A DNA stretch of 42,884 nt, taken from the IMG/VR virus record IMGVR_UViG_3300045988_069332, positions 1-42,884 of that record; one strand, 5' to 3'. The position numbers and the translations under genes are program-made. This document shows positions 5,053 through 26,125 of this stretch, piece after piece. The notes beneath the pieces are model-generated. The model was not told the DNA's origin. It was given only the letters and a program-made list of their open reading frames with translations, and searched no databases. Source of the stretch: a virus. Each line of letters opens with the position of its first letter. Position 1 is the first letter of the stretch.

Positions 5053-5054
5053 GG

Positions 5055-5306: not shown

Positions 5307-5572
5307 TATTCTGCTTCCTCCGTTTCGCTGTTGACTCCCAGCAGCTCAAGCGCCGCCTGCATGTCCTCCGCGTCCTTCTGGGCCTGTTCAAGGGCTGTCA
5401 GTACGCGTTCCCCGCCCCGGTAGAAGTCCTGCCCGTCGTAGGTATCGCCGATCGCTACCGGCAAATCCCCGCAGGGAACCGCGTCCGGGAAGTCCGATGC
5501 ATTGGCGGGATATAACCAAATGATGTTCGTTACCGTTCCATTTTCCACAACGGCATAATTCATTTCGTTCAT
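5306..5572 (-). CDS. Hypothetical protein (88 aa), fibre-associated position
   Basis: ATG at 5572 with AAGGAG 8 nt upstream. N-terminus is MNYAVVENGTVTNIIW. Confidence 0.6.
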   Translation of the reverse strand: MNEMNYAVVENGTVTNIIWLYPANASDFPDAVPCGDLPVAIGDTYDGQDFYRGGERVLTALEQAQKDAEDMQAALELLGVNSETEEAE

Positions 5573-5584
5573 GCTTTTCGCTCC

Positions 5585-6367
5585 TTATCTGTGATTGCGA
5601 ATCACGACAATGCCGCTGCCGCCCTTGCCGACGTTCGTCAGGCCGTAGTACATACCGCCGCCACCGCCGCCGGTGTTGGCCGCGCCGCTGCTGGGCTGGT
5701 TTCCGTTCCACGCGCCGTTGCCGCCGCCCCCGCTGCCGCCCTTGGCCTGTGCGGAGCCGTTGCCGCCAGCTCCACCACCGCCCGCATACAGGGTGCCGGT
5801 GCTCTCGCCGAACTCCCGCGTGGTCGTCCCCTGTCCCTTACCGGGGGAACCCCAATGGTCGATGCCGATGTTGGCGGCGTCCTGCGGGTCGCCGTTGCCG
5901 CCGTTGGAGCCGCCGTTGTTCACCTGATTATTGCCATAAGCGCCGCCGCCGCTTCCGCCGCCCAGTTTCGTGCCGCCGCCAGCCGTCACGCCAAGGGCGC
6001 TGGTGCTTCCGCCCGACGCAAAGGCGCTTTGTCCGCCCGCGCCGATCACGATGTTGTAGGCCGTGTTCACAGCCGCCTGAACGCCCTTCTGGGTTTTGGT
6101 GTAACCACCGCTGCCCGCCTTGCCGTAGCCGTTGTTCGCGTCCCAGTTGCCGCTTCCGCCTGCGCATCCGCCTCCAACGAGGAACACGTCAAGGCCGCCC
6201 TTAGCGCTCCCTAGCTTGGTAAAGGTCAGTACGCCGCTGGTCAGAAACTTGATCCGCCAGTTTCCGTCCCCGTCGTCGATCAGGCTGTACGTACCTGTGT
6301 AGGTAAACTCCGGCAGACCCAAGGCCGTCCCAGCTGCGCCACGCCTGGTGATAAAACATTCGCCCAT
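5585..6367 (-). CDS. Glycine-rich tail fibre / receptor-binding candidate (260 aa)
   Basis: Long GGxGG tracts ending in KGGSGIVVIRNHR, typical of phage glycine-rich-domain proteins. Lies in the distal tail module. Confidence 0.65.
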   Translation of the reverse strand: MGECFITRRGAAGTALGLPEFTYTGTYSLIDDGDGNWRIKFLTSGVLTFTKLGSAKGGLDVFLVGGGCAGGSGNWDANNGYGKAGSGGYTKTQKGVQAAVNTAYNIVIGAGGQSAFASGGSTSALGVTAGGGTKLGGGSGGGAYGNNQVNNGGSNGGNGDPQDAANIGIDHWGSPGKGQGTTTREFGESTGTLYAGGGGAGGNGSAQAKGGSGGGGNGAWNGNQPSSGAANTGGGGGGMYYGLTNVGKGGSGIVVIRNHR

Positions 6368-7222
6368 TTATGCCACCACCTTAATCTTGATGTGGATCGC
6401 CGTTTTCGGCTTCGCCGAGGATGTGAAGGTGATCTTCCCCGCGCCGCAAACGGCCTTGAGGATCAGTCCGAATGCATCCTGCGCGTCGCTCATGTCGTCC
6501 AACGTGGTCAGGCCCGTCATGTCCACATCCACAAAGGGCGTGTCACTGCCGAGGATGCCAGCGAGGGTCACCTCCTGCGTGTACGGCCCGGAACCAGTCC
6601 ACCCGGCTACGGTCAGGGTGGCGCTGTATTCCGTCACGTTCACCTTTTCCACGCCATCATAGACGGCTTGCAGGTTCGCTTCCAATTCCGCCAGAATGGC
6701 GTTGTACTGGCTCTGCAGCACGCTGGTGTCGATGCCCGTCACGCCGTCGCGCATCAGGCCGCAGACGGTTTCGTCCAGCCGCTCGTCGGTGATGTTGCCC
6801 GCGTTGATGGCCGTCGCGCCCGCCGCCACGGCGATCTGTGCCACGCTGATTTCATAGGCCGACGCGTCACGCTGCAGGGCGGGAGCCGCAGGAGAGGCCG
6901 CCGCCGTGCCCTTCTTGATGTAGGCGTAGCATTTGTTGTTCAGCATTTCCAGCCGGATGCACACCCGGTCGATGCGCTTGTACTGCGCGTCCGCCAGCGT
7001 CACCGTCAGGGCCTTTCCAACGGTGTTGCCGTACACGCATCCCGCAAAATCCGCATAATGCAGCCACGCAATGCCCGTCCCCAGCGTGACCGCCATGGTG
7101 CCGTTGGCCGTCACTCCCAGATGGGTGCCCGCGTAAACGCCGCTTTGCCGGGTAGCAAACCACAGCTGCGCGTCCTCCGCCGTGTAGGCCGTGTTTTCAA
7201 GTGGAAAACTCTTTTCAGCCAT
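6368..7222 (-). CDS. Tail fibre/baseplate structural protein (284 aa)
   Basis: Lies between the Gp37-like and glycine-rich genes. Start and stop overlap the neighbouring genes. Confidence 0.55.
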   Translation of the reverse strand: MAEKSFPLENTAYTAEDAQLWFATRQSGVYAGTHLGVTANGTMAVTLGTGIAWLHYADFAGCVYGNTVGKALTVTLADAQYKRIDRVCIRLEMLNNKCYAYIKKGTAAASPAAPALQRDASAYEISVAQIAVAAGATAINAGNITDERLDETVCGLMRDGVTGIDTSVLQSQYNAILAELEANLQAVYDGVEKVNVTEYSATLTVAGWTGSGPYTQEVTLAGILGSDTPFVDVDMTGLTTLDDMSDAQDAFGLILKAVCGAGKITFTSSAKPKTAIHIKIKVVA

Positions 7223-8261
7223 TTTTTACGATCTCTCCCTTCACATAATTCAAGGGCTTGTCGCCGATCACTACTTTGATCGTCTCCACCCCTTGCCGGT
7301 TCTCGTATTGATATTCCGTTATCCGCGCGTCAAAGCGCAGGCCGTAGCGCTGGCTTTTGCAAGTCACCTTGTCCCCCAGATCGCAGCGGTGACCGAACTC
7401 ATTCGCCGATAGCTCGCATTCAAAGCACAGGGCGTTTTTATGCTCCTGCAGGGCCTTGATGCCGATCTGCTTCTGCCGTTTCTGCCAATCGGGGTTGGTC
7501 TCGTCCTCGCCCTGATCCTCGCCCGTCACCAGCAGCTCCCGCCGCTGGGCCGCTCCCATCGCGATAGCCTCCGGGGACACATACTCGTAATACACGGTGC
7601 GCGGGTCGTTGTTGGCCGCGCCGGTCACCAGCGCCACGTTCTTGTATACGTCGTCGTCCTCGCTGACGGTCAGCTGTTTCAGATTCCCATATTCTTGAGA
7701 AAACACCACGCCGCCCACGCCGTCCTTGTACGTGCGGTCGGCCCCTTCGTAGACCTCGATCACGTTGGTCTTGTTCGCCAGGTCGAAGTTCGCCCTGATG
7801 CCGTATTCCGTCTGGCCCAGCACTTCTTCCGCCGCTTCCAGCAGGTCTTCTCCTTCGATCTCGCATTCGTACTCCGCCGTCAGCCCCTTCACGGAGGCGG
7901 TGGTGACGTTGAGCCAGCGCAGCTCGGCGTTTATCATGCCATACACGGCGCTTTCCACGTTGGTCACGCTGTACGCGTGAGCTATCGTCCGCCATGTCAG
8001 CAGGTGCAAGGCCGTGTACCCGCCCGCCGTGATGGTGTTGGCCTCCGTGTCCCGCTTGACGCTGATGATCAGCATGGCGGCGGGGCGGTCGGCCCGGTAT
8101 AGATACCAGCCGCGCCGAAGCAGCCCAGCGTATTTGTCGGTGTCGTACACTTCCAGCGTAAACCCGCCCTTGTCCGTGTACTGCTCCGTCCATGTCAGGT
8201 CGATCCAGTTCTCGATTTGGCCCCGATACACAAAGTCCGAATCAAATACATGCAGGATCAT
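7215..8261 (-). CDS. Tail-associated protein, siphovirus ReqiPepy6 Gp37-like (348 aa)
   Basis: Lies directly after Dit. N-terminus MILHVFDSDFVYRGQIENWIDLTWTEQYTDKGGFTLEV is typical of that family (recognised by eye). Confidence 0.6.
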   Translation of the reverse strand: MILHVFDSDFVYRGQIENWIDLTWTEQYTDKGGFTLEVYDTDKYAGLLRRGWYLYRADRPAAMLIISVKRDTEANTITAGGYTALHLLTWRTIAHAYSVTNVESAVYGMINAELRWLNVTTASVKGLTAEYECEIEGEDLLEAAEEVLGQTEYGIRANFDLANKTNVIEVYEGADRTYKDGVGGVVFSQEYGNLKQLTVSEDDDVYKNVALVTGAANNDPRTVYYEYVSPEAIAMGAAQRRELLVTGEDQGEDETNPDWQKRQKQIGIKALQEHKNALCFECELSANEFGHRCDLGDKVTCKSQRYGLRFDARITEYQYENRQGVETIKVVIGDKPLNYVKGEIVKNG

Positions 8262-8264
8262 CCG

Positions 8265-9116
8265 CTACACCCCCGCATAGGCCGGGCGGAAACTGATGGA
8301 TGCCCGCAGCGTGTCGCCGCCCTGATCCGCGTCGGTCTTGATATGGTTCTGGCCGGGCTGCAGCTTAAAGGGCACAGACGCGATATCCAGATACTGGAAC
8401 CCGTCGCTCTCGGTGCCGTCCGTCGCCGTCAGGGTCACGGACAGCTCCTCCCCTTCGTTGCTGATGGTCACCTGCTCCCCGGCGGCCATTGTCCGCATCA
8501 CCCGAACCATTTCGCCGGTCACGATGTTCTTCACATAGGGGTTTTTCGCTTCCAACAGGGCGAGGAAAGTCACCGTCCATCCAACGGGCGCTTCGCCCTC
8601 GTTGTTGACGGTCACATAGCCCACTTGGGCCAATTTGGACATGTAGAAGGGGTTTGGGTCGGAAATATTCCACGGGAACTGGAACTGCGGCTCGTAGCCC
8701 ACCAGAACTTTGTTTTTCCGCTCCGCGTCCCGCCAATAGGGGAAGGGGGCATACAAGGAAAAGCTGAACTTCGCCCCGTAGGGCTGGCGGTCGATATCCG
8801 GCGAGGACTTGACGTAGACTTCAAGCTCATACGCATCGTTATAGATGATCCGCCCCTTTGCCAGCGGGGCCAGCACATGGTTCAGTTGCTCTCGCAGCCC
8901 GTCAGACTTCCCGTTGATCGAGCCTTTGAGGGTGATCGTTTTCGGGCTGACGTTCTGGTGCTGCAGCACTTCGCCGATCTCCCGGTTGGACTTCGTGGTC
9001 TGAAACTCCACGTTCTGCGCCCCGTAGGACGTGACCTTTTCGATGTACGCGCCCGGTGCGCCGCTGTTGAACGTCACGCTGCCGATGTCGTTTTCATACC
9101 GCACCTTTGGGATCAT
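8265..9116 (-). CDS. Distal tail protein (Dit) (283 aa)
   Basis: ATG at 9116 is ATGA-coupled to the tape measure stop, with a GGAGGTGG RBS. Position is canonical. Confidence 0.7.
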   Translation of the reverse strand: MIPKVRYENDIGSVTFNSGAPGAYIEKVTSYGAQNVEFQTTKSNREIGEVLQHQNVSPKTITLKGSINGKSDGLREQLNHVLAPLAKGRIIYNDAYELEVYVKSSPDIDRQPYGAKFSFSLYAPFPYWRDAERKNKVLVGYEPQFQFPWNISDPNPFYMSKLAQVGYVTVNNEGEAPVGWTVTFLALLEAKNPYVKNIVTGEMVRVMRTMAAGEQVTISNEGEELSVTLTATDGTESDGFQYLDIASVPFKLQPGQNHIKTDADQGGDTLRASISFRPAYAGV

Positions 9117-11180: not shown

Positions 11181-11639
11181 ATGAAAAAAAGGGTTCTTTT
11201 TGTTTTGATTCTTCTTTGCGTTACCTTGTCAATGCCCGCGTTTTCGTCGGCGAATGAATCGGAAGACTTGCAGCTTGCCGTTGGCCTGATCGAACGAACC
11301 ATCAAAAAAGAGGGATACTCTTTCTATTGTGTTTCATACGATGAAGCGGGAATCTGGGTAAGCGTTGCGGAAGACGGAAAAGCCGAAATGATTGCCTCTG
11401 CGAAAGAAAACGGTTATAGTGAGGAATCGTGGGAAAAATCCAGAGAATCCGTACTTTCCGTTTGTGAATCGCTTTACGGATTTGTTCGCAATACGATGGA
11501 CATAAAAGACAAGATTCTTGGCTTTTACTTTCTGGATGATACAGACCATTCCAACGTAATTATCGCCGCTATGGGTTTCGGCGGTGAATCAAGAATCATA
11601 TATGATGTGCTGAAAGACGAAGCTACAGCAGAACCATAA
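11181..11639 (+). CDS. Secreted protein moron (152 aa) with signal peptide
   Basis: AAAGGAGG RBS. MKKRVLFVLILLCVTLSMPAFSSA/NE signal peptide. AT-richer than its flanks. Opposite strand to the surrounding tail operon. Confidence 0.8.
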   Translation: MKKRVLFVLILLCVTLSMPAFSSANESEDLQLAVGLIERTIKKEGYSFYCVSYDEAGIWVSVAEDGKAEMIASAKENGYSEESWEKSRESVLSVCESLYGFVRNTMDIKDKILGFYFLDDTDHSNVIIAAMGFGGESRIIYDVLKDEATAEP

Positions 11640-11641
11640 AA

Positions 11642-11667
11642 GGGAACGGCCCGCGCCGCTCCCTTTT
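11642..11667 (+). terminator. Terminator after the moron (possibly bidirectional)
   Basis: Stem gggaacggc/gccgctccc (one mismatch) followed by TTTT. Confidence 0.65.
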
Positions 11668-11669
11668 CC

Positions 11670-12077
11670 TTATCGCACATTCCCGCGCCCGGCGTTCCTG
11701 TACCTTACATTCAGCCCCGCGTCAATGGCCGGGGTCACCTCACCACACGCCGGAAGGAAAGCGTTCAGGATGCTTTCCGATTCCGCTACAATGCTTTGTA
11801 CTTCTTCCTGCGTTGGTGCTGCGTTCTTTTCCGGGTCGATGCTGTTCACGAAATCGGGGTAGGACTTGTCAAATATACGATGCAGCCAGACTTCCCAAAT
11901 GACCTTTTCCCGCTGCTCGTCGTTGTATCGCTTGACCAGTCCTTCCACAAACTCGCACAGCTTCCCGGCCCGGATCATTCCGTCCATCAGGGGATAGGGG
12001 TTGGCATACCTGCGGAAGATGAGGTCGAAAAAATCCTGCTCGTTCAGCTGCGCGATCTGAAGACCTGCGTAAAAAAA
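11670..12077 (-). CDS. Tail assembly chaperone, -1 frameshift extension (T part of the G-T fusion)
   Basis: The -1 frame is open from the slippery site to the stop at 11670. The predicted fusion reads ...DEFADFF|YAGLQIAQLNEQDFFDLIFRRYANPYPLMDGMIRAG... Confidence 0.7.
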   Translation of the reverse strand, partial: FFYAGLQIAQLNEQDFFDLIFRRYANPYPLMDGMIRAGKLCEFVEGLVKRYNDEQREKVIWEVWLHRIFDKSYPDFVNSIDPEKNAAPTQEEVQSIVAESESILNAFLPACGEVTPAIDAGLNVRYRNAGRGNVR

Positions 12078-12436
12078 TCCGCAAACTCGTCCTTCTGCAG
12101 AACATCCATGACCATCCCTGCGAAGGTGCCCATGGGAAGATCAGCGATCTCCTGTTCCTTCATGCCGGAGAGGGAGGCAAGAAACTGGTACAGCTCCTTC
12201 CGGCATTCCGGCAGGCGTTCCACTACCAGCGAGGCCACATCTAACATGATCTGCATTCCCACGGTGGCGGCCAAGCCGCTTTCCTGTGCATCCCCAGCGT
12301 CCGCAATGGCTTTGCGCACGGTCTCGCCGTCAAAGCACTTTTTCAGCTCGCTCAGTCCAATTTTGTTAATGATGCGCAGCACCGAAAACAGGTCGTCCGC
12401 CTTCAGCATCCGCAGGGTATAGGTCTTTTCGTTCAT
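12044..12436 (-). CDS. Tail assembly chaperone (gpG-like, 130 aa)
   Basis: Lies between the major tail protein and the tape measure. AGGAGGAG RBS. Carries the slippery site near its 3' end. Confidence 0.75.
   Translation of the reverse strand: MNEKTYTLRMLKADDLFSVLRIINKIGLSELKKCFDGETVRKAIADAGDAQESGLAATVGMQIMLDVASLVVERLPECRKELYQFLASLSGMKEQEIADLPMGTFAGMVMDVLQKDEFADFFTQVFRSRS
12071..12077 (-). other. Programmed -1 ribosomal frameshift site T_TTT_TTT
   Basis: Minus strand reads gcg gaT TTT TTT acg in the zero frame, 8 codons before the G stop. The downstream -1 frame is open. Confidence 0.7.
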
Positions 12437-12452
12437 TTTTGTTTCTCCTCCT

Positions 12453-12487
12453 AAAAAATCATGGGGCGGATGGCGTTCATCCGCCCC
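12453..12487 (-). terminator. Hairpin/partial terminator after the major tail gene
   Basis: 10-bp stem ggggcggatg/catccgcccc. A T6 run begins 4 nt after the stem on the minus strand. Confidence 0.55.
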
Positions 12488-12496
12488 GTTTTCCCC

Positions 12497-13096
12497 TTAC
12501 GCCCCAGGGGTGGGGTAGTAGATGTGCCACGGCAGGGTGTCCGCCTCGAGGGTCAAATCCGCGTAGCACTCAAAGGTCAGCGTAGGCGTGGCAACCTCCT
12601 TGTTCTGGGTCTCCACTTCCCAGCCGGAGGTGCACAGCGCATAGTCGAATACCACGATGATCGGGGTGCCGTCCAGCCGCTTGCCCACAAAGCCAAGGTT
12701 CTGCACATAGTCGCCGGTTTTGATCATCCCACGGGATTTCAACTCCGTGTAGCCGGTGGCCTTTTCGGAAACCGCCTCGTCCGCAATGACGGTCTTTTTG
12801 ATCAGGTCGGGGGTCTGCTCCACGGGCTTGATCTCCATGGTGGCGGTCTCGCCCACCTTCACGGCCAAGTCCCTGATCTTCACCAGCGCCCCGTCCACGG
12901 GCACGTCGTACAGCTCCTTGGTAATGCTCACCTTGCTGCCGCCGTTGGTAGCGCACAGCAGGGATTCCGCAAAATTCCACGTCCCGGCCTTAAACTCAAG
13001 GCCTGCGTGTACCGTGCCAGCGCCGAACAGGACGTTGCCCGGCGTGGCCTCCGTAATGCCGGAGGACTTAAATTCGTCGCCCAAAGCCATATTCAT
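12497..13096 (-). CDS. Major tail protein (199 aa)
   Basis: Canonical position upstream of the chaperones. ATGA-coupled to the preceding gene. Confidence 0.75.
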   Translation of the reverse strand: MNMALGDEFKSSGITEATPGNVLFGAGTVHAGLEFKAGTWNFAESLLCATNGGSKVSITKELYDVPVDGALVKIRDLAVKVGETATMEIKPVEQTPDLIKKTVIADEAVSEKATGYTELKSRGMIKTGDYVQNLGFVGKRLDGTPIIVVFDYALCTSGWEVETQNKEVATPTLTFECYADLTLEADTLPWHIYYPTPGA

Positions 13097-17959: not shown

Positions 17960-19405
17960 TTACCCCTCCTGTCTGTCAGGGTTCGCATTCACAGCCTGCT
18001 GCTGGCCGTCTATGGCCGTCTGGAGGGCATCCAAGGACGGAAGACCGCTGACGCGCTCCGCTTCCAGCGCCTCCAGGATGCCGGGGATGTCGTCCTGACT
18101 GATATAGGGGTTCAGCTTGAGGGCGGTCTCTTGATCGATATCGGAGCGCATGGTGTAGATGTCCTCCACCGTCTCCGACTTGTTGGTGATCTGCTGGCGC
18201 TGGAAAGCGATCTCCTCCGTGTCCACGCCCAGCAGAGAAAGCACCTGCTGAACGAACGCGAAGCATTGCCACTCGTAGTGGTCGCACTTGAGGTTGAGGT
18301 TGGTCATGGCCGCTTGGATGGCTACGTTGGTAAGGCTGCCGCCGGTCAGCTCGCTCATAGAGAGCGCCATATAGTCCTGATACAGCGCCCGCTCCAGCAG
18401 CGTCAGCGCCGTCTGCCGGGCCTGAAAGGGCACGTCGATGGTGCGCGGCTCCGCGCTGGAGCTTCCAGCCCCGTCGGACACGCTCATGGCGACCTTCAAC
18501 TCTTGGATTTCCTGAATGACTTGCAATGCCTGATCGGTGCTGCCGCCGAAGTTGTTCAGCACCCAGTACACGTCATTCGCCCGGTCGAGGTTGTCGCCGA
18601 AGTCCGAGGTGATTTTGTCGTACAGGTCGATTTTTGCCCGGATGGAGGGGGTCAGCTCGCTTTCATGCTCGTCGTTGGCATACAGGGGTACCACCGGCAG
18701 GCCGGAATAGCCCTCGCCGCCCACGACCACTTCCCCCAGCGCGTCCCGACGGACGATCTGCTTGTAGGCCCGCTTGGGCTGCTCCTCGTCGTACTTGCCG
18801 TCCTTGGCGCGGTAGACGGTCACGCCATCTGGCTCAAAGACGCGCATATACAGGGGCCGCTCGCCGGAGAGCTGCCAGAACTGGATGGCCGCGCCCACAG
18901 CCCCGGTCAATTCGTCCAGCAGGCCCACGCAGCCGGACAGCAGGTCGCGGGCCGCGCTGATGGGCTCCAAATGGTCAAGGTTCCAGTAGCCGTAGCTGAC
19001 CCCATGCAGCAGCGCCGCCTCGCCGATCTGCTGCAGCTTCACGTCAAAGCCCCGGCCCAGCCGGTCTTTCAGCGCCGCGTCCTCCAATGTAACGCCGTTG
19101 CCCAGAAGAAACTGGTTCTGCTGGCAGACGAACCGCCGCAGGAACGCCGAGGACACGCGGTTGCCCACCACGCGGACGGTGTCGGCCACCTTGCGGGTCA
19201 GGCCGTCTGCGTCCTTTTGCTCCCGGGTCTGGACTTTCAGCAGGTACTTGTCGTCGAGGGTTGGGTTGCAGCCCGCGAAATAGCGGTTCGCGTCCAGCGC
19301 GGCAACAAAAAACGCGGAGGCCTTGTAGCTCTCCACGATTCGGCGGGCATTCTCCGGGCCGCCGCCCAGATTAAGCCAATCCTGATAGGTGTAATCCGTA
19401 AACAT
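17960..19405 (-). CDS. Portal protein (SPP1 gp6-like, 481 aa)
   Basis: Size and position between TerL and MuF. Typical portal N-terminal region. Confidence 0.85.
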   Translation of the reverse strand: MFTDYTYQDWLNLGGGPENARRIVESYKASAFFVAALDANRYFAGCNPTLDDKYLLKVQTREQKDADGLTRKVADTVRVVGNRVSSAFLRRFVCQQNQFLLGNGVTLEDAALKDRLGRGFDVKLQQIGEAALLHGVSYGYWNLDHLEPISAARDLLSGCVGLLDELTGAVGAAIQFWQLSGERPLYMRVFEPDGVTVYRAKDGKYDEEQPKRAYKQIVRRDALGEVVVGGEGYSGLPVVPLYANDEHESELTPSIRAKIDLYDKITSDFGDNLDRANDVYWVLNNFGGSTDQALQVIQEIQELKVAMSVSDGAGSSSAEPRTIDVPFQARQTALTLLERALYQDYMALSMSELTGGSLTNVAIQAAMTNLNLKCDHYEWQCFAFVQQVLSLLGVDTEEIAFQRQQITNKSETVEDIYTMRSDIDQETALKLNPYISQDDIPGILEALEAERVSGLPSLDALQTAIDGQQQAVNANPDRQEG

Positions 19406-19409
19406 TGCT

Positions 19410-20669
19410 TCACGCTCCTAGGAGGCTGCGGCGGTCTTTGTCCAGCAGTCGGCAGGCCACGGCGGCGCTGTCCGGCGCGTCGTCATGCTCCGCGTCCTCG
19501 GTATAGTCCATGATCTGGGCGATGTACGCCCGGTCGGTGCCGTCCAGAAACACGATATTCCTCCACCATTTCCGCAGATAGGTGGAGATTTTAAGGTACT
19601 TGTTCTGATACTCGGCATAGATGCGGGCCTCTTGGCCCCGGTTGCGTATCTCCTTGCCCAGATACCCCTTGTCGCCGTTGCTCTCGCAGTACACCGGGGC
19701 GCATTGGAGCCGCTGGCACTCGGTGAGGGCCGCGTCCAATACGGTATCCACATGGGCCCGCCACAGGCGGCCATACAGATACAGGGTGTCGCCCCGGCGC
19801 TTGGCGCAGGTCAGGGCGGTATAATCCTCGCCGCCGTAGGCCGCGTCGATGTGGGCGATGCCGTCCCGCAGGAGGGCGGCGTTGTCGGTGCGCCCCGGCT
19901 GGATGTCAAACAGGGCGTTTTCGGCGGCGATATGCCGCAGCTCGTAGTTTGCCGCGAACAGGGACGGGGACATGCTGGCTTTCAGCTCGGCCAGCTTTTC
20001 CGGGGTTATAAGGCCGGTGGTGTAGCAGTCGTGCCGCTCTGGCTCGGCCACCAGCGTGAACGCGTCCTCCTTGTGCCACGGGGTGCCGATGAACACGATG
20101 CGCCCGTCGCGGGTGACGATGTTCCTCAGCTCCTGTACAACGGCCTTTGTGCGCTCCCGCTCGGCCCGGCTGACGCGGTCTTGGAGGTTTACAACGTCGT
20201 CGCAGACGATCAGGTTCGCGTGCTTGCCGGTCATGCTGCCGCCGCAGCCGCAGCCCAGCAGCTGCTCGGCTCCTCGCGGGCTGTCGTACACGTTCACGGT
20301 CAGGCTGTTGGCGGTGGACTTCATCAGCTCCACGTTCGTCCGCAAAAGCAGCGCCGCCATGTACCGAAAGCCCTCGTTTTCAAACACCTTCTTGGCCTGC
20401 GCGATGCTCTCCACGGTATCCGCATCAGTTTTGCGCATGAATAGGGCGTTCTCGCCGTGGTGCAGCACGCACCACATAGCCAGCGCCACGGAAAGGCAGG
20501 AGGATTTATAGCTCAGGCGGTGGGCCTGCAGCGTATAGTCCGACGTGCCGTAGAGGATGTGCTGCATCCATTTCCCGTGGAGCTCGTCGGTCAGGTCTCG
20601 GAAGCCAACCATTCGCCCCACCGCCGCCGGGTGATAGCGCCAGATGTTCCAGACTTCTTCCCGGGTCAC
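19410..20669 (-). CDS. terL: Terminase large subunit (419 aa)
   Basis: GTG start, GTGA-coupled to TerS. ATPase motifs (...LIVCDDVVN...) followed by a nuclease half. Confidence 0.85.
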   Translation of the reverse strand: MTREEVWNIWRYHPAAVGRMVGFRDLTDELHGKWMQHILYGTSDYTLQAHRLSYKSSCLSVALAMWCVLHHGENALFMRKTDADTVESIAQAKKVFENEGFRYMAALLLRTNVELMKSTANSLTVNVYDSPRGAEQLLGCGCGGSMTGKHANLIVCDDVVNLQDRVSRAERERTKAVVQELRNIVTRDGRIVFIGTPWHKEDAFTLVAEPERHDCYTTGLITPEKLAELKASMSPSLFAANYELRHIAAENALFDIQPGRTDNAALLRDGIAHIDAAYGGEDYTALTCAKRRGDTLYLYGRLWRAHVDTVLDAALTECQRLQCAPVYCESNGDKGYLGKEIRNRGQEARIYAEYQNKYLKISTYLRKWWRNIVFLDGTDRAYIAQIMDYTEDAEHDDAPDSAAVACRLLDKDRRSLLGA

Positions 20670-21025
20670 CGTATCTCACCCTTTGTTTCCTCCAGCAGCT
20701 TGTCGAGTTCGGCTTTCGCCTCGTCGGATAGGGTCGTGGTCTTCACATCGATCTGGTCGGGCGGCAGCTCGCCGATCATCTTCAAGCCCAGTTTGTACCA
20801 CTCCGGGGATTTATCCATGTTCAGCACCAGCTTGGCCGCTAGGGTCTTTCGGCGGGTGCTGCCGTCTTTGTTGGGCTCATCCAGCAGGGCGCGCATTTCC
20901 TCCGCGATGCCCCGCCGCTCGGAGGACGCCTTTTTTGCGTTTTCCCTCGCGGAACCGTCAGCGGAGCTGAAACGATGGCCTTTCTTCAAATTCGCGAGGC
21001 TGTTTGGGTGCTGGCCTCTTGGCAT
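20666..21025 (-). CDS. terS: Terminase small subunit candidate (119 aa)
   Basis: ATG at 21025 (MPRGQHPNSLANLKKG) with GGAGG 8 nt upstream. Lies directly upstream of TerL. Confidence 0.65.
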   Translation of the reverse strand: MPRGQHPNSLANLKKGHRFSSADGSARENAKKASSERRGIAEEMRALLDEPNKDGSTRRKTLAAKLVLNMDKSPEWYKLGLKMIGELPPDQIDVKTTTLSDEAKAELDKLLEETKGEIR

Positions 21026-21873
21026 TTCCATTTCCTCCATTTTTCGTTTATAATTTTCGGGCAACAGGCGTTCCAATCGACGTGATGGTGGCAGCGGCGA
21101 TTGGAGGTACCCATTGCCGAAACTTTCACGCACGACGGCGCATAAACGACGGAATAAAATGTCTTGACATATGTTCCACCGTCAAGATAATTTTCCGTCA
21201 TACCACCTTTGGACTTTTGCGTCATTTCTTGGTTTAATCCCGCTTTTAACGTCGTCAAATACAGCTCTCCGCGTATTCCGCCGGTCACATACGTATTTAC
21301 GTCCTCATTGATGCGCCCCACAAAATTGATCGGGTTGTCAACCCGGCAAATAAAACTGTTCATGGCTTTTCGCAAGAGCTGCTGCTTCCATCTGGCGCTT
21401 TTAATGCCGCCGATCAAATCACCACCCTGTGCAATCGCCACGCTTTTTGCACCGGAGTCATCCAAAAATTGGATCAACGCTTCAAACACATGGTCAAGCT
21501 GTTTAATACGCGGATGCCAAAGCTTACCGTTTTTCTCGACCAAATAATGGAAAGCTGTATAATCATCATCCAGTTCGATAAAATATTTCAGTCCAAGATC
21601 ACGCGCGATTGCAAACGCTTCATTTCTTGCAAAAATAATGCAGCGGCGTTCTTTCGACGTATCGCCAACATCCGTTTTTTTAGCGCGATCTTCTTTGCAA
21701 AACTGAACGACTTTATCACCGTAGATTCTGCGGTATTCTTCTTCTTGATCGTCTTCGTCATCAATGACGATGTAATAACGCCCTGTGTAGCCAGCCTTTC
21801 GTAAAGATTTTACCGTTTTGATATTGTTGGCTCGCCCATGGGACAGGATCAAGGCCGCAAAATCGTCACGCAT
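20986..21873 (-). CDS. GT-A-like glycosyltransferase candidate with DxD motifs (possibly TET-associated GT/GREB1-like) (295 aa)
   Basis: ATG at 21873 with a GGGAGGAA RBS. Motifs YYIVIDDEDD, YFIELDDDY, GGMTENYLDGGTY, RRCHHHVDWN. AT-rich. Confidence 0.45.
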   Translation of the reverse strand: MRDDFAALILSHGRANNIKTVKSLRKAGYTGRYYIVIDDEDDQEEEYRRIYGDKVVQFCKEDRAKKTDVGDTSKERRCIIFARNEAFAIARDLGLKYFIELDDDYTAFHYLVEKNGKLWHPRIKQLDHVFEALIQFLDDSGAKSVAIAQGGDLIGGIKSARWKQQLLRKAMNSFICRVDNPINFVGRINEDVNTYVTGGIRGELYLTTLKAGLNQEMTQKSKGGMTENYLDGGTYVKTFYSVVYAPSCVKVSAMGTSNRRCHHHVDWNACCPKIINEKWRKWKCQEASTQTASRI

Positions 21874-22594
21874 CGGTATCTTCCTCCCGCAAGCGATCAA
21901 TTTCCGCGCACATCGTCACATATCCATTGGCGATCGCGTCATCCACATCAATAATTACAAGCGCACTTCTTTCCATCAGCTTTTGGCATTCGGGAGAAGC
22001 AGCAGCATAAAATTCCGCGATTTTCGTATAATCGAAAACGATATGCCGATAAGCCGCAATACGTAAAAAATTCTTCTCCATATCCGGCAGCTCGGACGCG
22101 TTGATTTCTTCGATCATGCTTTGGCATTTTGTATCGTCGTAGAGGTCAACAACGGGCGGGGGTTCACCTTGCACCTCATATTGAGGAATATTCACAGCCG
22201 ACGTATAGGTATTTTCAATTTCTGTTTCCAGTTCTTTTTCGTCGAAGCCGAATTGAGCCATATCCATGCTGATCCCGGCAAGCTCTTTCGAAAGTAAATC
22301 CATATCCCAGTCGGCCAACTCGCCGGACTTGTTGTCGGCCAATCGGTATGCCTTGATCTGCTCCTCGGTGAGGTTATCCGCCACGACAACGGGCACCTCG
22401 GCCAGCCCCAGCTTCCGGGCGGCCTTGTAGCGGGTATGACCGGCGATAATTACGCCGTCCTTGTCTACGACAATCGGCTGCTGCCAGCCAAATTCCCGGA
22501 TGCTGGCGGCCACGGCATCCACGGCGCTGTCGTTGTTCCGTGGGTTGTTCTCATACGGGGTGATTTCCCGGATGGGTCTTTGCAATACCTCCAT
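21866..22594 (-). CDS. ParB/Srx N-terminal-domain (nuclease-type) protein (242 aa)
   Basis: IREITPYENNPRNND...IVVDKDGVIIAGHTRYKAARKLG is a classic ParB-N domain. No methyltransferase motifs seen in the C-terminal half. Confidence 0.8.
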   Translation of the reverse strand: MEVLQRPIREITPYENNPRNNDSAVDAVAASIREFGWQQPIVVDKDGVIIAGHTRYKAARKLGLAEVPVVVADNLTEEQIKAYRLADNKSGELADWDMDLLSKELAGISMDMAQFGFDEKELETEIENTYTSAVNIPQYEVQGEPPPVVDLYDDTKCQSMIEEINASELPDMEKNFLRIAAYRHIVFDYTKIAEFYAAASPECQKLMERSALVIIDVDDAIANGYVTMCAEIDRLREEDTDA

Positions 22595-22612
22595 AGTTAC
22601 GCCTCCAAATTG

Positions 22613-23167
22613 TTACCGGGTATACCGATTCACCCGGTCTAAGATTTCCCTTGCCGTCATTGCAGGCATGCTTCTCAACTGGTCGGAAAGGCTTTGCATC
22701 GTCGTTTTTTGTGCTGCAATTCCGTTAACCATATTCCCCGTCGCAGACCTGACACGATCAGCAAGCTTGCTTTTGGCATACGCGATCTGTTTTTCAGACA
22801 CGCCGCTCGGGTCGTTCAGCTTGATCCCAATCGCAAGGGAGCCGGGTGCAGTGTTGTTCTTTTTCCCATAATCCCAAGACGCTTTGTTGCTGTTAAAATA
22901 GACGTCATTTCGAGACGGGCTAAAACCAACGTTGTAAACAACGTCATAACCGCCCTTGTTGATCTCATTCGAATAACCGACCGCAAAATCGGAGACGGCA
23001 CCCTTGCCGCCGGAAAAGGTGGTGAAGGTTTCGGAGCCAAGTTGTTTCCCCTGATAGGTGATTTCGATCCTTCCCTTTGCGCCGCCCTTGGCGATCCCCT
23101 TCGAACCGCCGCCAGCGCCAATGGAACTGCCTCTGCCGCCGAAAAACTGTAGTTCAAGCCTCCGCAT
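22613..23167 (-). CDS. Hypothetical virion-protein candidate with L27-like N-terminal propeptide (184 aa)
   Basis: ATG at 23167 with a GGGAGGG RBS. N-terminus is MRRLELQFFGGRGSS. Confidence 0.6.
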   Translation of the reverse strand: MRRLELQFFGGRGSSIGAGGGSKGIAKGGAKGRIEITYQGKQLGSETFTTFSGGKGAVSDFAVGYSNEINKGGYDVVYNVGFSPSRNDVYFNSNKASWDYGKKNNTAPGSLAIGIKLNDPSGVSEKQIAYAKSKLADRVRSATGNMVNGIAAQKTTMQSLSDQLRSMPAMTAREILDRVNRYTR

Positions 23168-23804
23168 GGTTCTTTCCCTCCCTCGCTTTTTCAAACCGCC
23201 GGTAAAAGGTTTCCACCGGGCAGATGTTCCCCCGGCACTCCGCCGGGATATGGCCCCAAAACAAGATCGTTTCCGGCTGCAAGCGCTCCAGCATGGCATC
23301 ATAGCCATTCACAAACAGGCGTTTTGCGTCGGGCTCCTTCTGCGTCCCAACGCTGCTTACCGCTACCACGCTCTTTGCCGGTTCCCCATCAAAGCACCAT
23401 TCATAGCTTTTTTCGTCCGCCCAGCAGATCGTCGGGATCACCTTGATCCCATTTTTCTGCCAATACTGCCCAAGCCAATGCTTACGGTAATGGTTGTACA
23501 GATTCAGGGCGGTCGGGGTATCGGTGTATAGGCTGTAGTCAGGGGTCAAAACGGCGCTTGCACATTGAAAGGCTTCTAGATAGCGGGAAGGGTTATTCCA
23601 GCATCTGACCATCCGATAATCGTCCACGAACATGTGTACGCCCTGACTTTTGGTAAATGGCTTGCTCAGATCGTTGAACGGAATCCATTCATCCAAAAAC
23701 GGAAGCTCCACAGGATCGATCACGGGGATGTCGTATTTCCCCACCACATCCGCGAACTGCGGCAAAAGATGTTCGAGATTTTCAGTCAAACGCCGGAATG
23801 CCAT
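23154..23804 (-). CDS. DUF4417-like protein (216 aa)
   Basis: ATG at 23804 with AGGAGGTGA. HMFVDDYRMVRCWNNP...VLTPDYSLYTDTP..LNLYNHYRKHWLGQYWQKNGIKVIPTICW matches the DUF4417 pattern (recognised by eye). Confidence 0.6.
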   Translation of the reverse strand: MAFRRLTENLEHLLPQFADVVGKYDIPVIDPVELPFLDEWIPFNDLSKPFTKSQGVHMFVDDYRMVRCWNNPSRYLEAFQCASAVLTPDYSLYTDTPTALNLYNHYRKHWLGQYWQKNGIKVIPTICWADEKSYEWCFDGEPAKSVVAVSSVGTQKEPDAKRLFVNGYDAMLERLQPETILFWGHIPAECRGNICPVETFYRRFEKAREGKNHAEA

Positions 23805-23918
23805 GCTTTCACCTCCTGAAAAACTGCGCCGCCCCGCCACAGCGCAAAACATGGGGGCAACCACTCCCCATCTTCCCGCGCCGGAGGTAAGCGCCGCTCC
23901 TTAAATCGCCTCCCACGC

Positions 23919-23950
23919 AAAAAGGGAGCGGGCCGAGGCCAACTCCCTTT
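23919..23950 (-). terminator. Intrinsic terminator/attenuator about 25-50 nt downstream of the late-operon promoter
   Basis: Minus strand reads aaaaGGGAGttGGCCtcGGCCcgCTCCCTTTTTgcg. It lies inside the ~145-nt leader of the 23804 gene. Confidence 0.6.
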
Positions 23951-23978
23951 TCCGTGTGCTATTCAATTTGCAATTATC

Positions 23979-24007
23979 ATTATATTGTATTTATTTTTGT
24001 TTTTCAA
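23979..24007 (-). promoter_or_regulatory. Consensus sigma-A promoter (TTGAAA-17-TATAAT) at the head of the late operon
   Basis: Minus strand: TTGAAA at 24007-24002 and TATAAT at 23984-23979. Lies in an AT-rich gap. Confidence 0.7.
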
Positions 24008-24014
24008 CTGCATT

Positions 24015-24368
24015 TTACTGCACGGAAGCCAGCTCGCTGTTCATGGCCTTTATGATCTTTGGGAGCTGCAGGGCGAAGAAATCGATCATTTCCTCGTTCT
24101 GTGCCCAATCGCTGTTTTCCGCCAAGCCGGATTCATACAAAAAGGCATGGATGACCTCATGGCGCATGTTCTTGTTCATTTGCCAATACAGATCGCCTTT
24201 ATTTAACGGATCGTCTCCAGCGTCGCCGTAGTCGTTCACGACGATCTCCTTGATGGAGTTATCGCATAGCCCGTCGCAATCCTTCAAGCGCTTGTCTTCA
24301 CTCTTGTTGCATAGTGTCAGGATGTATTCGGTGCCCAAAATGTCGATCTTATACTTATCCAAGGTCAT
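24015..24368 (-). CDS. HExxH zinc-metallopeptidase-like protein (117 aa)
   Basis: Motif NMRHEVIHAFLYESGL. Start at 24368 overlaps the upstream gene by 14 nt. Confidence 0.55.
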   Translation of the reverse strand: MTLDKYKIDILGTEYILTLCNKSEDKRLKDCDGLCDNSIKEIVVNDYGDAGDDPLNKGDLYWQMNKNMRHEVIHAFLYESGLAENSDWAQNEEMIDFFALQLPKIIKAMNSELASVQ

Positions 24369-24828
24369 TCTCCTCCATCCACCTTCTGATAATGCCAAGC
24401 GCCCGGCCGTGCTGGATGAACACCCAGCGGCTCTGCCGGTCTTCCTGCCGCTGGAAATGCTCGATGATCTCCGGCCATTCCGCGCCCTCGATGTAGCGCA
24501 TAGTCAGGATGAGCTTCTGCCGCTCGTCGGTCAACTGGCCGATGGCGCTCAGTACCTGCGCCGCCTTGCGGTCGATGCGGGCGATCTCCGCCGCGAAGCT
24601 GCGCTGCGCGTCCACATTGTTCACGACGGCCTCGGCCATGCGGTCATATGCCGCCGGGCTGCCGGAAACGCTGATGGGCTTCAGCTTCGCCGTGCAGGAT
24701 GTAGCGGACGCGTAATAGCGCTCCATGTGCCGGGCAAGCCGCTCCCTTCGCTCCAGCATTTCCGGGTAGCCAAACAACCATTTCTTCGCCGGGTTTTCTG
24801 GCTTTTGTATCAGCTTCGCGGTCTCCAT
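24355..24828 (-). CDS. Late-gene transcriptional regulator candidate (DUF1492/ArpU/sigma-r4-like, 157 aa)
   Basis: C-terminal LTDERQKLILTMRYIEGAEWPEIIEHF...HGRALGIIRRW is sigma region-4-like. Lies just upstream of the late promoter. Confidence 0.55.
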   Translation of the reverse strand: METAKLIQKPENPAKKWLFGYPEMLERRERLARHMERYYASATSCTAKLKPISVSGSPAAYDRMAEAVVNNVDAQRSFAAEIARIDRKAAQVLSAIGQLTDERQKLILTMRYIEGAEWPEIIEHFQRQEDRQSRWVFIQHGRALGIIRRWMEENDLG

Positions 24829-24834
24829 CGTTCC

Positions 24835-25359
24835 CTACCTCCCGTCTCGTTCGCCGCAGGGCTGCATTTCGCGGCATTTCCCACGGTACACGCAGTCCGG
24901 CACCAGTACCCGCAGCATTTCCGGGTTTAGCCCGATGATGGCGTTGCAGACCGCAGTCCAGAGCTGCCGTGTCTCCGTCGCCGCTTTATAGCAAAGCCGT
25001 TTCCGGCTGATGTTGATAAGGGCCTGCGCGTTCACATCCATGGTCAGCATCACGGGCGCGTCCTGCCGGGCCTTGTTTCGGTCGTACCTGCTCTGCCGGT
25101 CGTTTCGCTGGCTCTGCACGTACCATTCCACGCCATATTTATGCCGTACAAGATGCATTGCCACCCAATAGGGCACGTCATATATTCGCACCGTCCACAT
25201 AAGGGTTCGGATGGGGGAATGCTCCGCCTTCAAGATTTTTTCCATCCACGCAGGGGTGGGGACTTTGTCCGTCCCCTTCCCCTCCGTTCCCAGCGCCAGC
25301 CGGTAGCATCGCGCCCAGTCTTCTTCCGTCGGCCTGCGGATGATCTCGATCTTACTCAT
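24835..25359 (-). CDS. Divergent, short ThyX (Thy1-fold) thymidylate-synthase-like protein (174 aa)
   Basis: EHSPIRTLMWTVRIYDVPYWVAMHLVRHKYGVEWYVQSQRNDRQSRY parallels the ThyX RHR-x7-S-x-RY signature but is altered. NAQALINISRKRLCYKAATETRQLW is also ThyX-like. Confidence 0.6.
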   Translation of the reverse strand: MSKIEIIRRPTEEDWARCYRLALGTEGKGTDKVPTPAWMEKILKAEHSPIRTLMWTVRIYDVPYWVAMHLVRHKYGVEWYVQSQRNDRQSRYDRNKARQDAPVMLTMDVNAQALINISRKRLCYKAATETRQLWTAVCNAIIGLNPEMLRVLVPDCVYRGKCREMQPCGERDGR

Positions 25360-25528
25360 TCTTCCTCGCTCCTATCCAGTCCACGATATTTTTGGCCGTC
25401 AACACCGCCCAATAGCCGACGATCCACGGCCACATGTTCCGCCCGGCAGCCAGCCCCGCGCACACGGTCAGGGCGATAGCCGCCAGCGCCAGCACAAGGG
25501 AGGCAGAGGTGATTCTGTATGGGTTCAT
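25352..25528 (-). CDS. 58-aa two-TM membrane protein (not in the ORF track)
   Basis: ATG at 25528 with GGAGG 7 nt upstream. MNPYRITSASLVLALAAIALTVCAGLAAGRNMWPWIVGYWAVLTAKNIVDWIGARKNE. Overlaps the ThyX-like start by 8 nt. Confidence 0.6.
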   Translation of the reverse strand: MNPYRITSASLVLALAAIALTVCAGLAAGRNMWPWIVGYWAVLTAKNIVDWIGARKNE

Positions 25529-25540
25529 GGGCGGGCCTCC

Positions 25541-25927
25541 TTATGGTTTGGTTTCCACGTACAGGAGCGGCTCGACGTGGAAATATAGGCGATAATGATA
25601 CGGGTCTGTATGCGTCCCTGTGATGTCCTCCACGACATACATGGTGTAGGCATTTAGATATACATAGTTCTTTTTGTAGGTTTTGGGGCCGGTTTTGACG
25701 GTGACGATTAACTCATTGTTATCATCATCATTGTCGATCGACATATACCCCTCTGCCTCCAATATGATCTTGTCGGTGCGGGCATTGTAGACCGTGATTT
25801 TCCGCTCGGATTCTAAATAATCCGCCTGCTTTGAAATATTCCAGTTGGCCTTGGAGGCTTCGGAGCATCCGCATAGCAGCAGGAGCATGGCGGCGCATAG
25901 GGCAATGAGGGCATGTTTCTTTTTCAT
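25541..25927 (-). CDS. Lipoprotein (128 aa)
   Basis: Signal peptide with lipobox MKKKHALIALCAAMLLLLCG|C. GGAGG RBS. AT-richer than the flanks. Confidence 0.8.
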   Translation of the reverse strand: MKKKHALIALCAAMLLLLCGCSEASKANWNISKQADYLESERKITVYNARTDKIILEAEGYMSIDNDDDNNELIVTVKTGPKTYKKNYVYLNAYTMYVVEDITGTHTDPYHYRLYFHVEPLLYVETKP

Positions 25928-25930
25928 GGT

Positions 25931-26125
25931 TCAATCCTCCTTCGGCGGTTCTGGCAGGGGCATCCAGTGGGTGACAAACCTTGTAATATTGGTCAAATCA
26001 TCACAGGTAAGCCATTCGCCGTCGCCATAATAGACGGCAAACACTATCCCGTACCCGTTTCGCCCATATACAAGATACGTTGCATCGTCTTCCGGCAGCC
26101 TGTCCTTAACGCTGATCCAGTCCAT
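25931..26125 (-). CDS. DUF551 domain protein (64 aa)
   Basis: MDWISVKDRLPEDD...THWMPLPEPP is the DUF551 signature. The alternative ATG at 26131 has a poor spacer. Confidence 0.75.
   Translation of the reverse strand: MDWISVKDRLPEDDATYLVYGRNGYGIVFAVYYGDGEWLTCDDLTNITRFVTHWMPLPEPPKED

Follow-up and report, generated by a model that had tools for sequence, protein, structure and literature searches.

The 42,884-nt DNA analysed here, referred to as the window (IMG/VR virus record IMGVR_UViG_3300045988_069332, positions 1 to 42,884), represents a temperate siphophage or prophage with genes mostly on the minus strand. The region between positions 20986 and 23804 is a variable cargo slot heading the late (packaging) operon, and two of the genes in it form a functional unit: a ParB-like protein and a glycosyltransferase of the TAGT ('TET-associated glycosyltransferase') family. 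The unit was recognized by the near-obligate pairing of TAGT with a ParB possessing a specific C-terminal domain (CTD). Judging from the genomic context, the best reading, to which we give about an even chance, is that the ParB assists post-replicative glycosylation of the phage DNA, with the acceptor unassigned. An initial annotation of the window had described a candidate DNA-modification island made up of the glycosyltransferase, the ParB/Srx-type protein and a DUF4417 protein.

Pairing of TAGT with a ParB C-terminal domain

The pair comprises the following elements:
20986..21873, minus strand: TAGT-family (GREB1-related) glycosyltransferase, predicted GT-A type, 295 aa (Pfam PF20691 and phrog_842)
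21866-22594, minus strand: whole ParB, 242 aa (ParB_N; phrog_620)
22223..22594, minus strand: ParB/Srx (CTPase-fold) N-terminal domain, residues 1-124 (ParB_N, E 1.3e-10)
21866..22222, minus strand: ParB CTD, residues ~125-242, TAGT-specific partner domain (from alignments)

The association was followed in both directions. The forward test set consisted of 80 viral contigs with a TAGT homologue (48-58% identity), 79 of which had upstream sequence; all 79 encoded a full-length ParB homologue directly upstream of TAGT. In species-representative genomes a ParB with the same conserved CTD was found directly upstream of TAGT in 24/24 testable loci, the hosts including Subdoligranulum, Bacteroides, Prevotella, Muribaculaceae, Escherichia, Shigella, Serratia, Phascolarctobacterium, Ignavibacteria, Planctomycetaceae and Saccharibacteria metagenome-assembled genomes. 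In the reverse test TAGT was located downstream of the CTD-bearing ParB in 72/72 testable loci (adjacent in 59, with one gene between in 13), and in 0/7 of the loci that matched the ParB N-domain only. De-replication at 70% identity left the pairing in 57 of 59 TAGT clusters, and at least one of the two unpaired clusters (L002) is a split ParB match.

Clustering of all open reading frames (ORFs) within +/-7 kb showed that ParB and TAGT are the only genes shared by most loci. Downstream of the pair, terS, terL and portal genes are the usual neighbours, and these belong to several unrelated types; no structural gene is conserved beside the pair across hosts. The tie between glycosyltransferase and ParB proposed in the initial annotation is near-obligate, and the co-occurrence of its three genes across phages holds for ParB with TAGT but not for DUF4417, which was absent from all 80 TAGT loci, just as TAGT was absent from 80 DUF4417 loci.

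Neither the two families nor their adjacency is new, because solitary TAGTs and ParB neighbours are already in the literature: solitary TAGTs were counted in 288 of 753 glycosyltransferase-encoding phage genomes and called functionally undefined (PMC13216743). The window is one of thousands of instances. What the published accounts that we found do not state is that TAGT is near-obligately paired with a specific ParB CTD, which also occurs stand-alone, that the cassette is self-sufficient, and that it exchanges with a ParB-methylase at a defined recombination point.

The N-terminal part of the ParB protein matched PF02195 (ParB_N) with 41.6 bits (cut-off 26.3), and the protein matched phrog_620 at 2e-66. 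In the AlphaFold2 (AF2) model (mean pLDDT 77.5) the N-domain reached 85-94. Foldseek aligned the N-domain model with the CTPase-fold structures of ParB, Noc and KorB (E 6e-7 to 1e-5) and more weakly with sulfiredoxin and SerK, and the PADLOC type II methylase model matched the same domain at 3e-27. ParB box II, the GxxR phosphate-binding motif, corresponds to G52-H53-T54-R55, which is invariant in 30 homologues. No helix-turn-helix (HTH) family was found in ParB by the Pfam scan, no ParA-type ATPase was found among the ORFs scanned with Pfam (integrase to portal), and the NCBIfam partition models scored far under their cut-offs. The characteristic features of a segregation (ParABS) ParB, the Glu of the GERR motif, the HTH parS-binding domain and the ParA partner, were all not found, and the protein is best classified from its sequence as a ParB/Srx-fold protein, not a segregation ParB. 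As the initial annotation had it, no methylase domain is attached (Pfam scan).

The CTD carries the invariant residues Y130, P137, Y139, F176, L177, R183, H184, L212-V213-I214, D216 and G224; these invariants (the PQY, RH and LVI-D segments) are shared by bacterial phages and the haloarchaeal virus HHTV-2. The domain was predicted to be helical, partly at low confidence (AF2 model). A profile search of the PDB with the CTD returned no relative, the ParB matches being confined to the N-domain. As a single-sequence query the CTD found nothing, and an alignment-based scan succeeded. In Vibrio phage pv27, whose genome measures 191 kb, TAGT is preceded by a gene that encodes the CTD alone, without the ParB N-domain; since the CTD stands alone beside TAGT, we regard it as the TAGT-specific partner. 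In the window the start of TAGT overlaps the stop codon of ParB by 8 nt (ATGCGTGA), an arrangement suggestive of translational coupling of TAGT to ParB.

The longest ORF of TAGT encodes 304 aa from a TTG start at 21900, and 295 aa if counted from the ATG. Its translation contains YYIVIDDEDD, FIELDDDY, GGMTENY and NRRCHHHVDWN, which include all peptide motifs quoted in the initial annotation. The resemblance to TAGT/GREB1-like glycosyltransferases, first noticed by eye, was borne out by profile search: PF20691 matched with 119.6 bits (cut-off 27.5, E 2.3e-34), phrog_842, annotated after the T2/T6 enzyme, matched at 9e-69, and the E. coli homologue is named 'GREB1-related protein' in the NCBI pipeline. 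An alignment of 12 distant homologues, which took in HHTV-2, Vibrio, Lactobacillus and E. coli-type sequences, revealed the invariant residues R14, D41, D102-D104, Y105, D152, R168, K169, N189-E190-D191, R260, H262 and H263. Among these R14, D102-D103-D104-Y105 and E190-D191, invariant from bacterial phages to the archaeal virus, fit the R...DDD...ED motifs described for phage DNA GT-A enzymes (bioRxiv 10.1101/2023.12.21.572611). A profile search of PDB sequences with TAGT yielded no relatives, and the GT-A type is a putative assignment taken from the literature (PMC13216743). In one homologue (P0024, 430 aa) the N-terminal half is duplicated, resulting in tandem partial glycosyltransferase domains in one protein.

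More than 7,000 homologues of each of ParB and TAGT were present in the protein collection. The cassette is carried by one haloarchaeal virus and by temperate phages whose hosts span at least six bacterial phyla. The pair is annotated, without function, in Lactobacillus phages phi jlb1 (genes 24 and 25) and c5 (ORF1 and ORF2, next to cos), in Nocardia phage NTR1 (Orf1 and Orf2), in HHTV-2 (genes 21 and 22) and in Salmonella and E. coli siphophages, and is also found in Vibrio phages. In E. coli Rac-type prophages it corresponds to ynaK and the 'GREB1-related protein': the cassette is the same, with aa identities of 43% and 50%, and so is its position before terS/terL. The differences lie in the host phylum and the phage backbone, and ynaK is often truncated. 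The E. coli pair matched 1550 of 5426 complete genomes, with a coverage of at least 80% in 907, and about every sixth complete E. coli genome has the cassette in a Rac-like prophage. One example is E. coli CFSAN061763 (L175), where the pair is at 4989-6702. Literature searches on ynaK and on L. delbrueckii phages gave nothing relevant, and on HHTV-2 nothing virus-specific.

Some cassettes contain additional sequences. Seven loci have a second TAGT paralogue between ParB and TAGT. In two loci this place is occupied by a histidine phosphatase fused to a cytidylyltransferase-like (HldE-like) domain, which matches the heptose-1-phosphate adenylyltransferase PHROG. One TAGT (L191) is fused to a P-loop (GGSRAGKT) domain, and this N-terminal domain had no PHROG or Pfam match. 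The coordinates of variants are 4713-5666 in L230, 4737-5729 in L236, 4726-6114 in L191 and 4731-5558 in L200. Such insertions would be consistent with glycan extension and donor supply, i.e. with active sugar chemistry. In phi jlb1 (L173) the 1.4 kb directly upstream of the pair (11350-12746) has no annotated gene and no ORF longer than 73 aa; this stretch may hold RNA genes or regulatory DNA.

The cargo slot and its exchange

The slot and its borders are made up as follows:
23826..24007, minus strand: conserved late-operon leader, with a promoter-like site and two hairpin/T-run elements, preceding the cargo slot
23154..23804, minus strand: DUF4417 protein, 216 aa (Pfam PF14386, E 5e-53)
22613..23167, minus strand: orf184, 184 aa, between DUF4417 and ParB
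21036..22303: window-specific segment of foreign composition (ParB aa ~98-242 and TAGT aa 1-279), from blastn break points and the GC3 drop
20666..21025, minus strand: terS, small terminase subunit, downstream edge of the slot and start of the packaging genes

The relatives of the phage were located through protein-guided searches because a megablast search with positions 19000-26000 against 50,697 phage records gave no match. Near-identical phages reach 95-99% identity with the window in terL, portal and the ThyX-like and sigma-like proteins. Their nucleotide sequences follow that of the window collinearly (92-97% identity) as far as ~23826, diverge there and become collinear again from ~21035. 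Because the relatives are collinear on both flanks and different between, the coordinates of the island in the initial annotation describe a hypervariable cargo slot, bounded by the leader (end ~23826) and terS (~21036). The initial annotation was right about the strand and coordinates of the three genes upstream of terS and about the identity of the third as DUF4417; they are not contiguous, as orf184, which it did not list, lies between DUF4417 and ParB. An independent gene call on a contig with a 95%-identical TAGT reproduced the five-gene set.

The leader contains a near-consensus, promoter-like sequence (TTGAAA-17-TATAAT at 24007-23979), a hairpin at 23948-23918 read by eye from the sequence, and a terminator-like element at 23847-23824. 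Its 23972-23826 segment is 97% identical in L167, a relative whose cargo differs. In appearance the leader is a late promoter followed by terminators, perhaps of the antitermination type.

The contents of the slot vary between relatives. L084 has DUF4417, orf184, a ParB_N-N6_N4 DNA methylase fusion (438 aa) and two small ORFs, whereas in L164 HicAB is combined with a ParB_N-N6_N4 methylase fusion; the two fusion proteins measure 438-441 aa. A ParB remnant with an ANT/Bro antirepressor is present in L085 and L165, and DUF4417, orf184 and a 25-codon ParB remnant in L086. In L167 and L170 there is a PAPS-reductase-family protein with a ParB-like protein. These two ORFs overlap, the ParB-like one encoding 241 aa (L167 9387-10704, also in L170), and constitute another ParB + enzyme module at the slot equivalent to window positions 21036-23826. 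We take this pair to be IbrA/IbrB-like.

The N-domain of the window ParB shares 89% aa identity with the N-domain of the L084 and L164 ParB-methylase fusions. The window and L084 differ only over 22303-21036, which encodes ParB residues ~98-242 and TAGT residues 1-279. The break points were derived from blastn comparisons with L084, L164 and L167, in which the flanks were 93-97% identical. In these alignments the segment 21036-22303 replaces the methylase module of the sister phages. G+C content at third codon positions (GC3) drops from 0.73 in the ParB N-domain and 0.76-0.85 in the backbone genes to 0.47 in the CTD and 0.49 in TAGT; the overall GC content of TAGT is 45.7% vs 62-63% in terL and portal. 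The CTD and TAGT together have the composition of a low-GC, foreign insert, presumably acquired horizontally. The cassette is dispensable in near-identical phages.

The initial annotation read a 40-nt overlap of the glycosyltransferase gene with terS as a sign of tight co-expression with packaging. The overlap, which holds if terS starts at the ATG at 21025, is real and is repeated in the relative subjected to the independent gene call, but it gives no sign of special coupling. The last ~16 TAGT codons and the terS overlap belong to the conserved terS-proximal backbone, and the same tail (…EASTPTASRI) closes an unrelated 65-aa ORF in L084 and L164; the overlap is therefore a by-product of the cassette junction. 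terS itself is 98% identical in relatives with other cargo.

Proposed DNA glycosylation and its alternatives

According to the favoured reading, the cassette would be expressed late, during packaging of the replicated phage DNA. The ParB would bring the glycosyltransferase to double-stranded phage DNA or activate it there, the ParB/Srx fold contacting DNA or nucleotide and the CTD binding TAGT. TAGT would then move a sugar from a nucleotide-sugar donor to the DNA, and the modified DNA would be protected against host restriction, the same job as that of the ParB-methylase fusion in the sister phages. Several facts lead us to infer that DNA is the target, that ParB is an activator or loader and that the role is anti-restriction: the near-obligate ParB partner of TAGT; the allelism of the cassette with a ParB-DNA methylase fusion, whose presence in the same slot of near-identical phages supports a DNA-modification role; the match of the ParB N-domain to the PADLOC type II methylase model; the action on DNA of the assigned family members (PMC13216743, PMC13390438); the activation by a short phage ParB of a thymine dioxygenase on double-stranded DNA (dsDNA) (PMC13229309); and the proposal, as quoted in PMC8256090, that ParB directs a modification apparatus at packaging.

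In agreement with the initial annotation, no known pathway to a modified precursor is visible: the Pfam scan of the ORFs from integrase to portal detected no TET/JBP, ThyA-type or DpdA/TGT family. The complete genomes of c5 and phi jlb1 (31.8 kb and 38 kb) have no annotated TET/JBP or thymidylate-synthase homologue, and their largest unassigned ORF does not exceed about 210 aa. Beyond the pair itself, no gene nearby is conserved, and a source of hydroxymethyl-pyrimidine was not found by association. On the favoured reading the cassette functions in the absence of a hydroxylase or hydroxymethylase, and its acceptor would therefore not be a phage-made 5-hydroxymethyl-pyrimidine. A more specific version, which we advance only tentatively, is that the ParB-CTD/TAGT pair adds sugar directly to otherwise unmodified DNA, without a hydroxymethyl handle.

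Several observations weigh against DNA glycosylation by the pair. No modified base is known in any cassette-bearing phage, and canonical DNA lacks the hydroxyl acceptor used by characterised family members, which is 5-hydroxymethylcytosine (5hmC), 5-hydroxymethyluracil (5hmU) or a sugar thereon. GREB1, a relative of TAGT, glycosylates a protein (PMC7968844), and Pyle et al. deemed glycosyltransferase contigs without 5mYOX/ThyS less obviously DNA-directed (bioRxiv 10.1101/2023.12.21.572611). Divergent 5mYOX enzymes can escape Pfam, thousands of 5mYOX-like contigs having been missed by the TET/JBP model (PMC13229309). Box II of the window ParB reads GHTR, not GERR, i.e. it is without the hydrolysis Glu, and the box II Arg is also lost in the Nocardia phage NTR1 homologue, which makes canonical CTP-clamp behaviour of this ParB doubtful. 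In E. coli CFSAN061763 TAGT is intact but the ParB gene, ynaK, is a pseudogene.

A ThyX-like gene ~1 kb upstream of the region (24835-25359, minus strand, 174 aa), to which the initial annotation makes no reference, was considered as a source of the acceptor. The protein matched Pfam Thy1 with 38.5 bits (cut-off 24.8, E 1.3e-9), scored 31.9 against TIGR02170 (cut-off 87.9), and had no PDB sequence match. The ThyX motif is RHR-x7/8-S-x-R-Y; here it reads RHK-x8-SQRN. The gene belongs to the backbone in 9/9 relatives whatever their cargo, TAGT being present in 0/9, and it occurs in 0/80 TAGT loci. On this co-occurrence the gene, considered as the missing hydroxymethylase, was rejected as a partner of the cassette.

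The target of TAGT might instead be a protein or another non-DNA molecule (a virion protein, ParB, terminase or a host factor), with ParB as substrate or scaffold. GREB1 of the same superfamily O-GlcNAcylates ER-alpha (PMC7968844), TarP, a teichoic-acid glycosyltransferase, is the top solved-structure relative of the phage GT-A enzymes (bioRxiv 10.1101/2023.12.21.572611), the TAGT gene heads a structural/packaging operon, and no hydroxylated DNA acceptor is available in the window (integrase to portal) or in c5 and phi jlb1. Set against this are the near-obligate partnership with a ParB/Srx-fold protein, the allelism of the slot with a ParB-DNA methylase fusion and the lack of a structural gene conserved beside the pair across hosts; moreover, the only experimentally assigned phage family members act on DNA (PMC13216743). 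We consider a non-DNA target unlikely. A lower probability still attaches to a hidden first step, in which TAGT would act on 5hmC or 5hmU produced by an unrecognised enzyme (the ThyX-like protein, a divergent dioxygenase or DUF4417). Such a step would satisfy the need of all characterised TAGT relatives for a hydroxymethyl or sugar acceptor (PMC13216743, PMC13390438), and both the ThyX-like gene and the 5mYOX-like contigs that escape the Pfam model (PMC13229309) could be cited in its favour, but the ThyX-like gene is a backbone gene of TAGT-less relatives, missing from TAGT loci, ParB and TAGT alone are common to most loci, c5 and phi jlb1 offer neither an annotated candidate nor a larger unassigned ORF, and the DUF4417 model is alpha/beta, not dioxygenase-like by our own reading, with no TAGT co-occurrence outside this lineage.

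That the pair is a packaging or partition accessory, ParB marking the DNA for terminase, or a prophage defence/exclusion function, appears very unlikely. The pair is nearly always directly upstream of terS/terL, in c5 next to cos, and type IV restriction enzymes can contain ParB_N-like domains (PMC12373910). This position is, however, a general cargo slot after a late promoter, the cassette is dispensable in near-identical phages, the enzyme catalytic motifs of TAGT are invariant, and TAGT had no PADLOC match. As improbable, or slightly more so, is a three-enzyme DNA-hypermodification pathway of DUF4417, ParB and TAGT, the single module foreseen in the initial annotation. In its favour, the three genes are neighbours within one operon of this phage and of its closest relative, and ParB_N-DUF4417 fusions have been reported (PMC12704722 / bioRxiv 10.1101/2025.10.10.680097), with phrog_940 matching both the ParB and the DUF4417 protein. 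The absence of co-occurrence in 80 loci in either direction speaks against the pathway, as do the retention of DUF4417-orf184 together with a methylase (L084) or without any ParB (L086) and the location of DUF4417 after the portal gene in many phages.

ParB-assisted DNA glycosylation can be compared with known systems. The T2/T6 beta-glucosyl-HMC-alpha-glucosyltransferase and the TET/5mYOX-associated GT-A enzymes have the same Pfam family (PF20691), PHROG and R...DDD...ED motifs as the window TAGT, which, like them, is phage-encoded and probably acts late or post-replicatively. These enzymes act on 5hmC, 5hmU or attached glucose, and their acceptors are supplied by dCMP hydroxymethylase, or by a C5-methylase and TET. 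In contrast, no supplier was found in the window (integrase to portal), c5 or phi jlb1, and the window TAGT clade has a dedicated ParB-CTD partner. In the 5mYOX176/ParB176 system, described in 2026, a short ParB is the required activator of a phage thymine dioxygenase on dsDNA (PMC13229309). The likeness lies in the short ParB, which combines a nucleotide-binding N-domain with a C-terminal domain, lacks a recognisable DNA-binding domain and is encoded beside a DNA-modifying enzyme and terminase genes. The partner here is a glycosyltransferase, not a dioxygenase, and the C-terminal domains are likened by architecture only; whereas ParB176 is needed for activity on dsDNA, the dependence of TAGT on ParB is deduced from co-occurrence only. 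The prophage ParB_N-N6_N4_Mtase fusions, which probably modify phage DNA late, sit in the identical slot and have a ParB N-domain 89% identical to that of the window; unlike in the fusions, the methylase domain is replaced here by the CTD and a separate glycosyltransferase gene, with presumably different chemistry and acceptor. The pair thus resembles the logic of the ParB-dependent 5mYOX and of the ParB-methylase fusions, with a different enzyme. Human GREB1 has a related glycosyltransferase domain (PMC7968844), but is a 1949-aa eukaryotic protein which O-GlcNAcylates a transcription factor and has no ParB partner.

The experimentally assigned phage DNA glycosyltransferases all decorate a hydroxymethylated base or a sugar already on one, and solitary TAGT genes, which are common, have been flagged as unexplained in recent papers. 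The orphan TAGTs are not truly solitary: a dedicated ParB-type partner domain accompanies them, and the pair swaps with ParB-methylase fusions at one late-operon slot, needing no other conserved gene. The question is reduced to two genes in tractable systems (E. coli Rac-like prophages, c5, phi jlb1 and HHTV-2). If the target is DNA, the anti-restriction modification would be new and the pair would give a second case of a ParB serving a DNA-modifying enzyme as cofactor; if it is a protein, the pair would be a bacterial-virus counterpart of GREB1. Sugar added directly to unmodified DNA would amount to a chemistry of DNA modification that has so far not been described. Nothing here demonstrates new chemistry.

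Other genes of the window

The remaining features of the window are, in gene order:
38297-39463, plus strand: integrase
24835-25359, minus strand: ThyX-like gene (see above)
24355-24828: sigma-like late regulator
19410-20669: terL, downstream of terS
17960-19405: portal, downstream of terL

Genes for a Sak annealing protein, an HNH nuclease, SSB and a DnaB helicase are located between integrase and the ThyX-like gene. The latter is followed by the sigma-like late regulator, a phrog_1233 protein, the cargo region, terS, terL and portal. The host of the phage, a gut bacterium, is probably Subdoligranulum or another member of the Oscillospiraceae. An Rfam search of positions 20500-25600 gave nothing beyond a sub-threshold chance match. 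None of the PADLOC defence-system models matched TAGT, DUF4417, orf184 or the ThyX-like protein, and NCBIfam had no model for TAGT, DUF4417 or orf184.

DUF4417 and orf184 make up a separate cargo unit, outside the glycosyltransferase module. DUF4417 is set apart because of its lack of co-occurrence with TAGT, on which ground it is rejected as a part of the glycosyltransferase pathway; orf184 was likewise found in 0/80 TAGT loci. DUF4417 and TAGT occur together in this phage and its closest relative, never outside this lineage, and in the sister phages DUF4417 stays with orf184 whatever cargo follows.

The DUF4417 protein matched PF14386 with 179.7 bits (cut-off 28.9). Its AF2 model (pLDDT 90.4, pTM 0.86), which we read as a probable alpha/beta fold, had no significant match in the PDB, the best being TIM-barrel-like fragments at E 0.06; a profile search of PDB sequences found no relatives either. 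The NDT-like fold that the initial annotation proposed looking for was not found: the top 50 PDB matches contained no NDT, and in the BFVD search the first 'deoxyribosyltransferase' was at rank 46 (E 1.3). The best BFVD matches outside the family were five phage 'queuine tRNA-ribosyltransferase' (DpdA/TGT-type) models, all weak (E 9e-3 to 4e-2, TM 0.29-0.52). Comparison with phage 9g DpdA by hhalign gave a probability of 0.3%, and Pfam TGT did not match any of 30 DUF4417 members, leaving the DpdA/TGT likeness as a weak lead without profile support.

orf184 overlaps the stop codon of DUF4417 by 14 nt and was called as a 185-aa gene in the independent gene call of the relative. The family is rare, with 9 representatives among 1.84 billion proteins, and had no Pfam, PHROG, NCBIfam or PADLOC match. 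Its N-terminus (MRRLELQFFGGRGSS) resembles what we take to be the Prp-protease cleavage motif of ribosomal protein L27 of Firmicutes and of some phage capsid proteins; by analogy, this would point to processing of the orf184 product and perhaps to its association with the virion.

Viral contigs in which DUF4417 stands alone, directly downstream of portal and with no ParB beside it, number more than 20 (L135, L139-L143, L147-L155 and L157-L161; DUF4417 at ~8001-8600, portal at ~6600-7800). The position just after portal is the usual place of head-morphogenesis genes.

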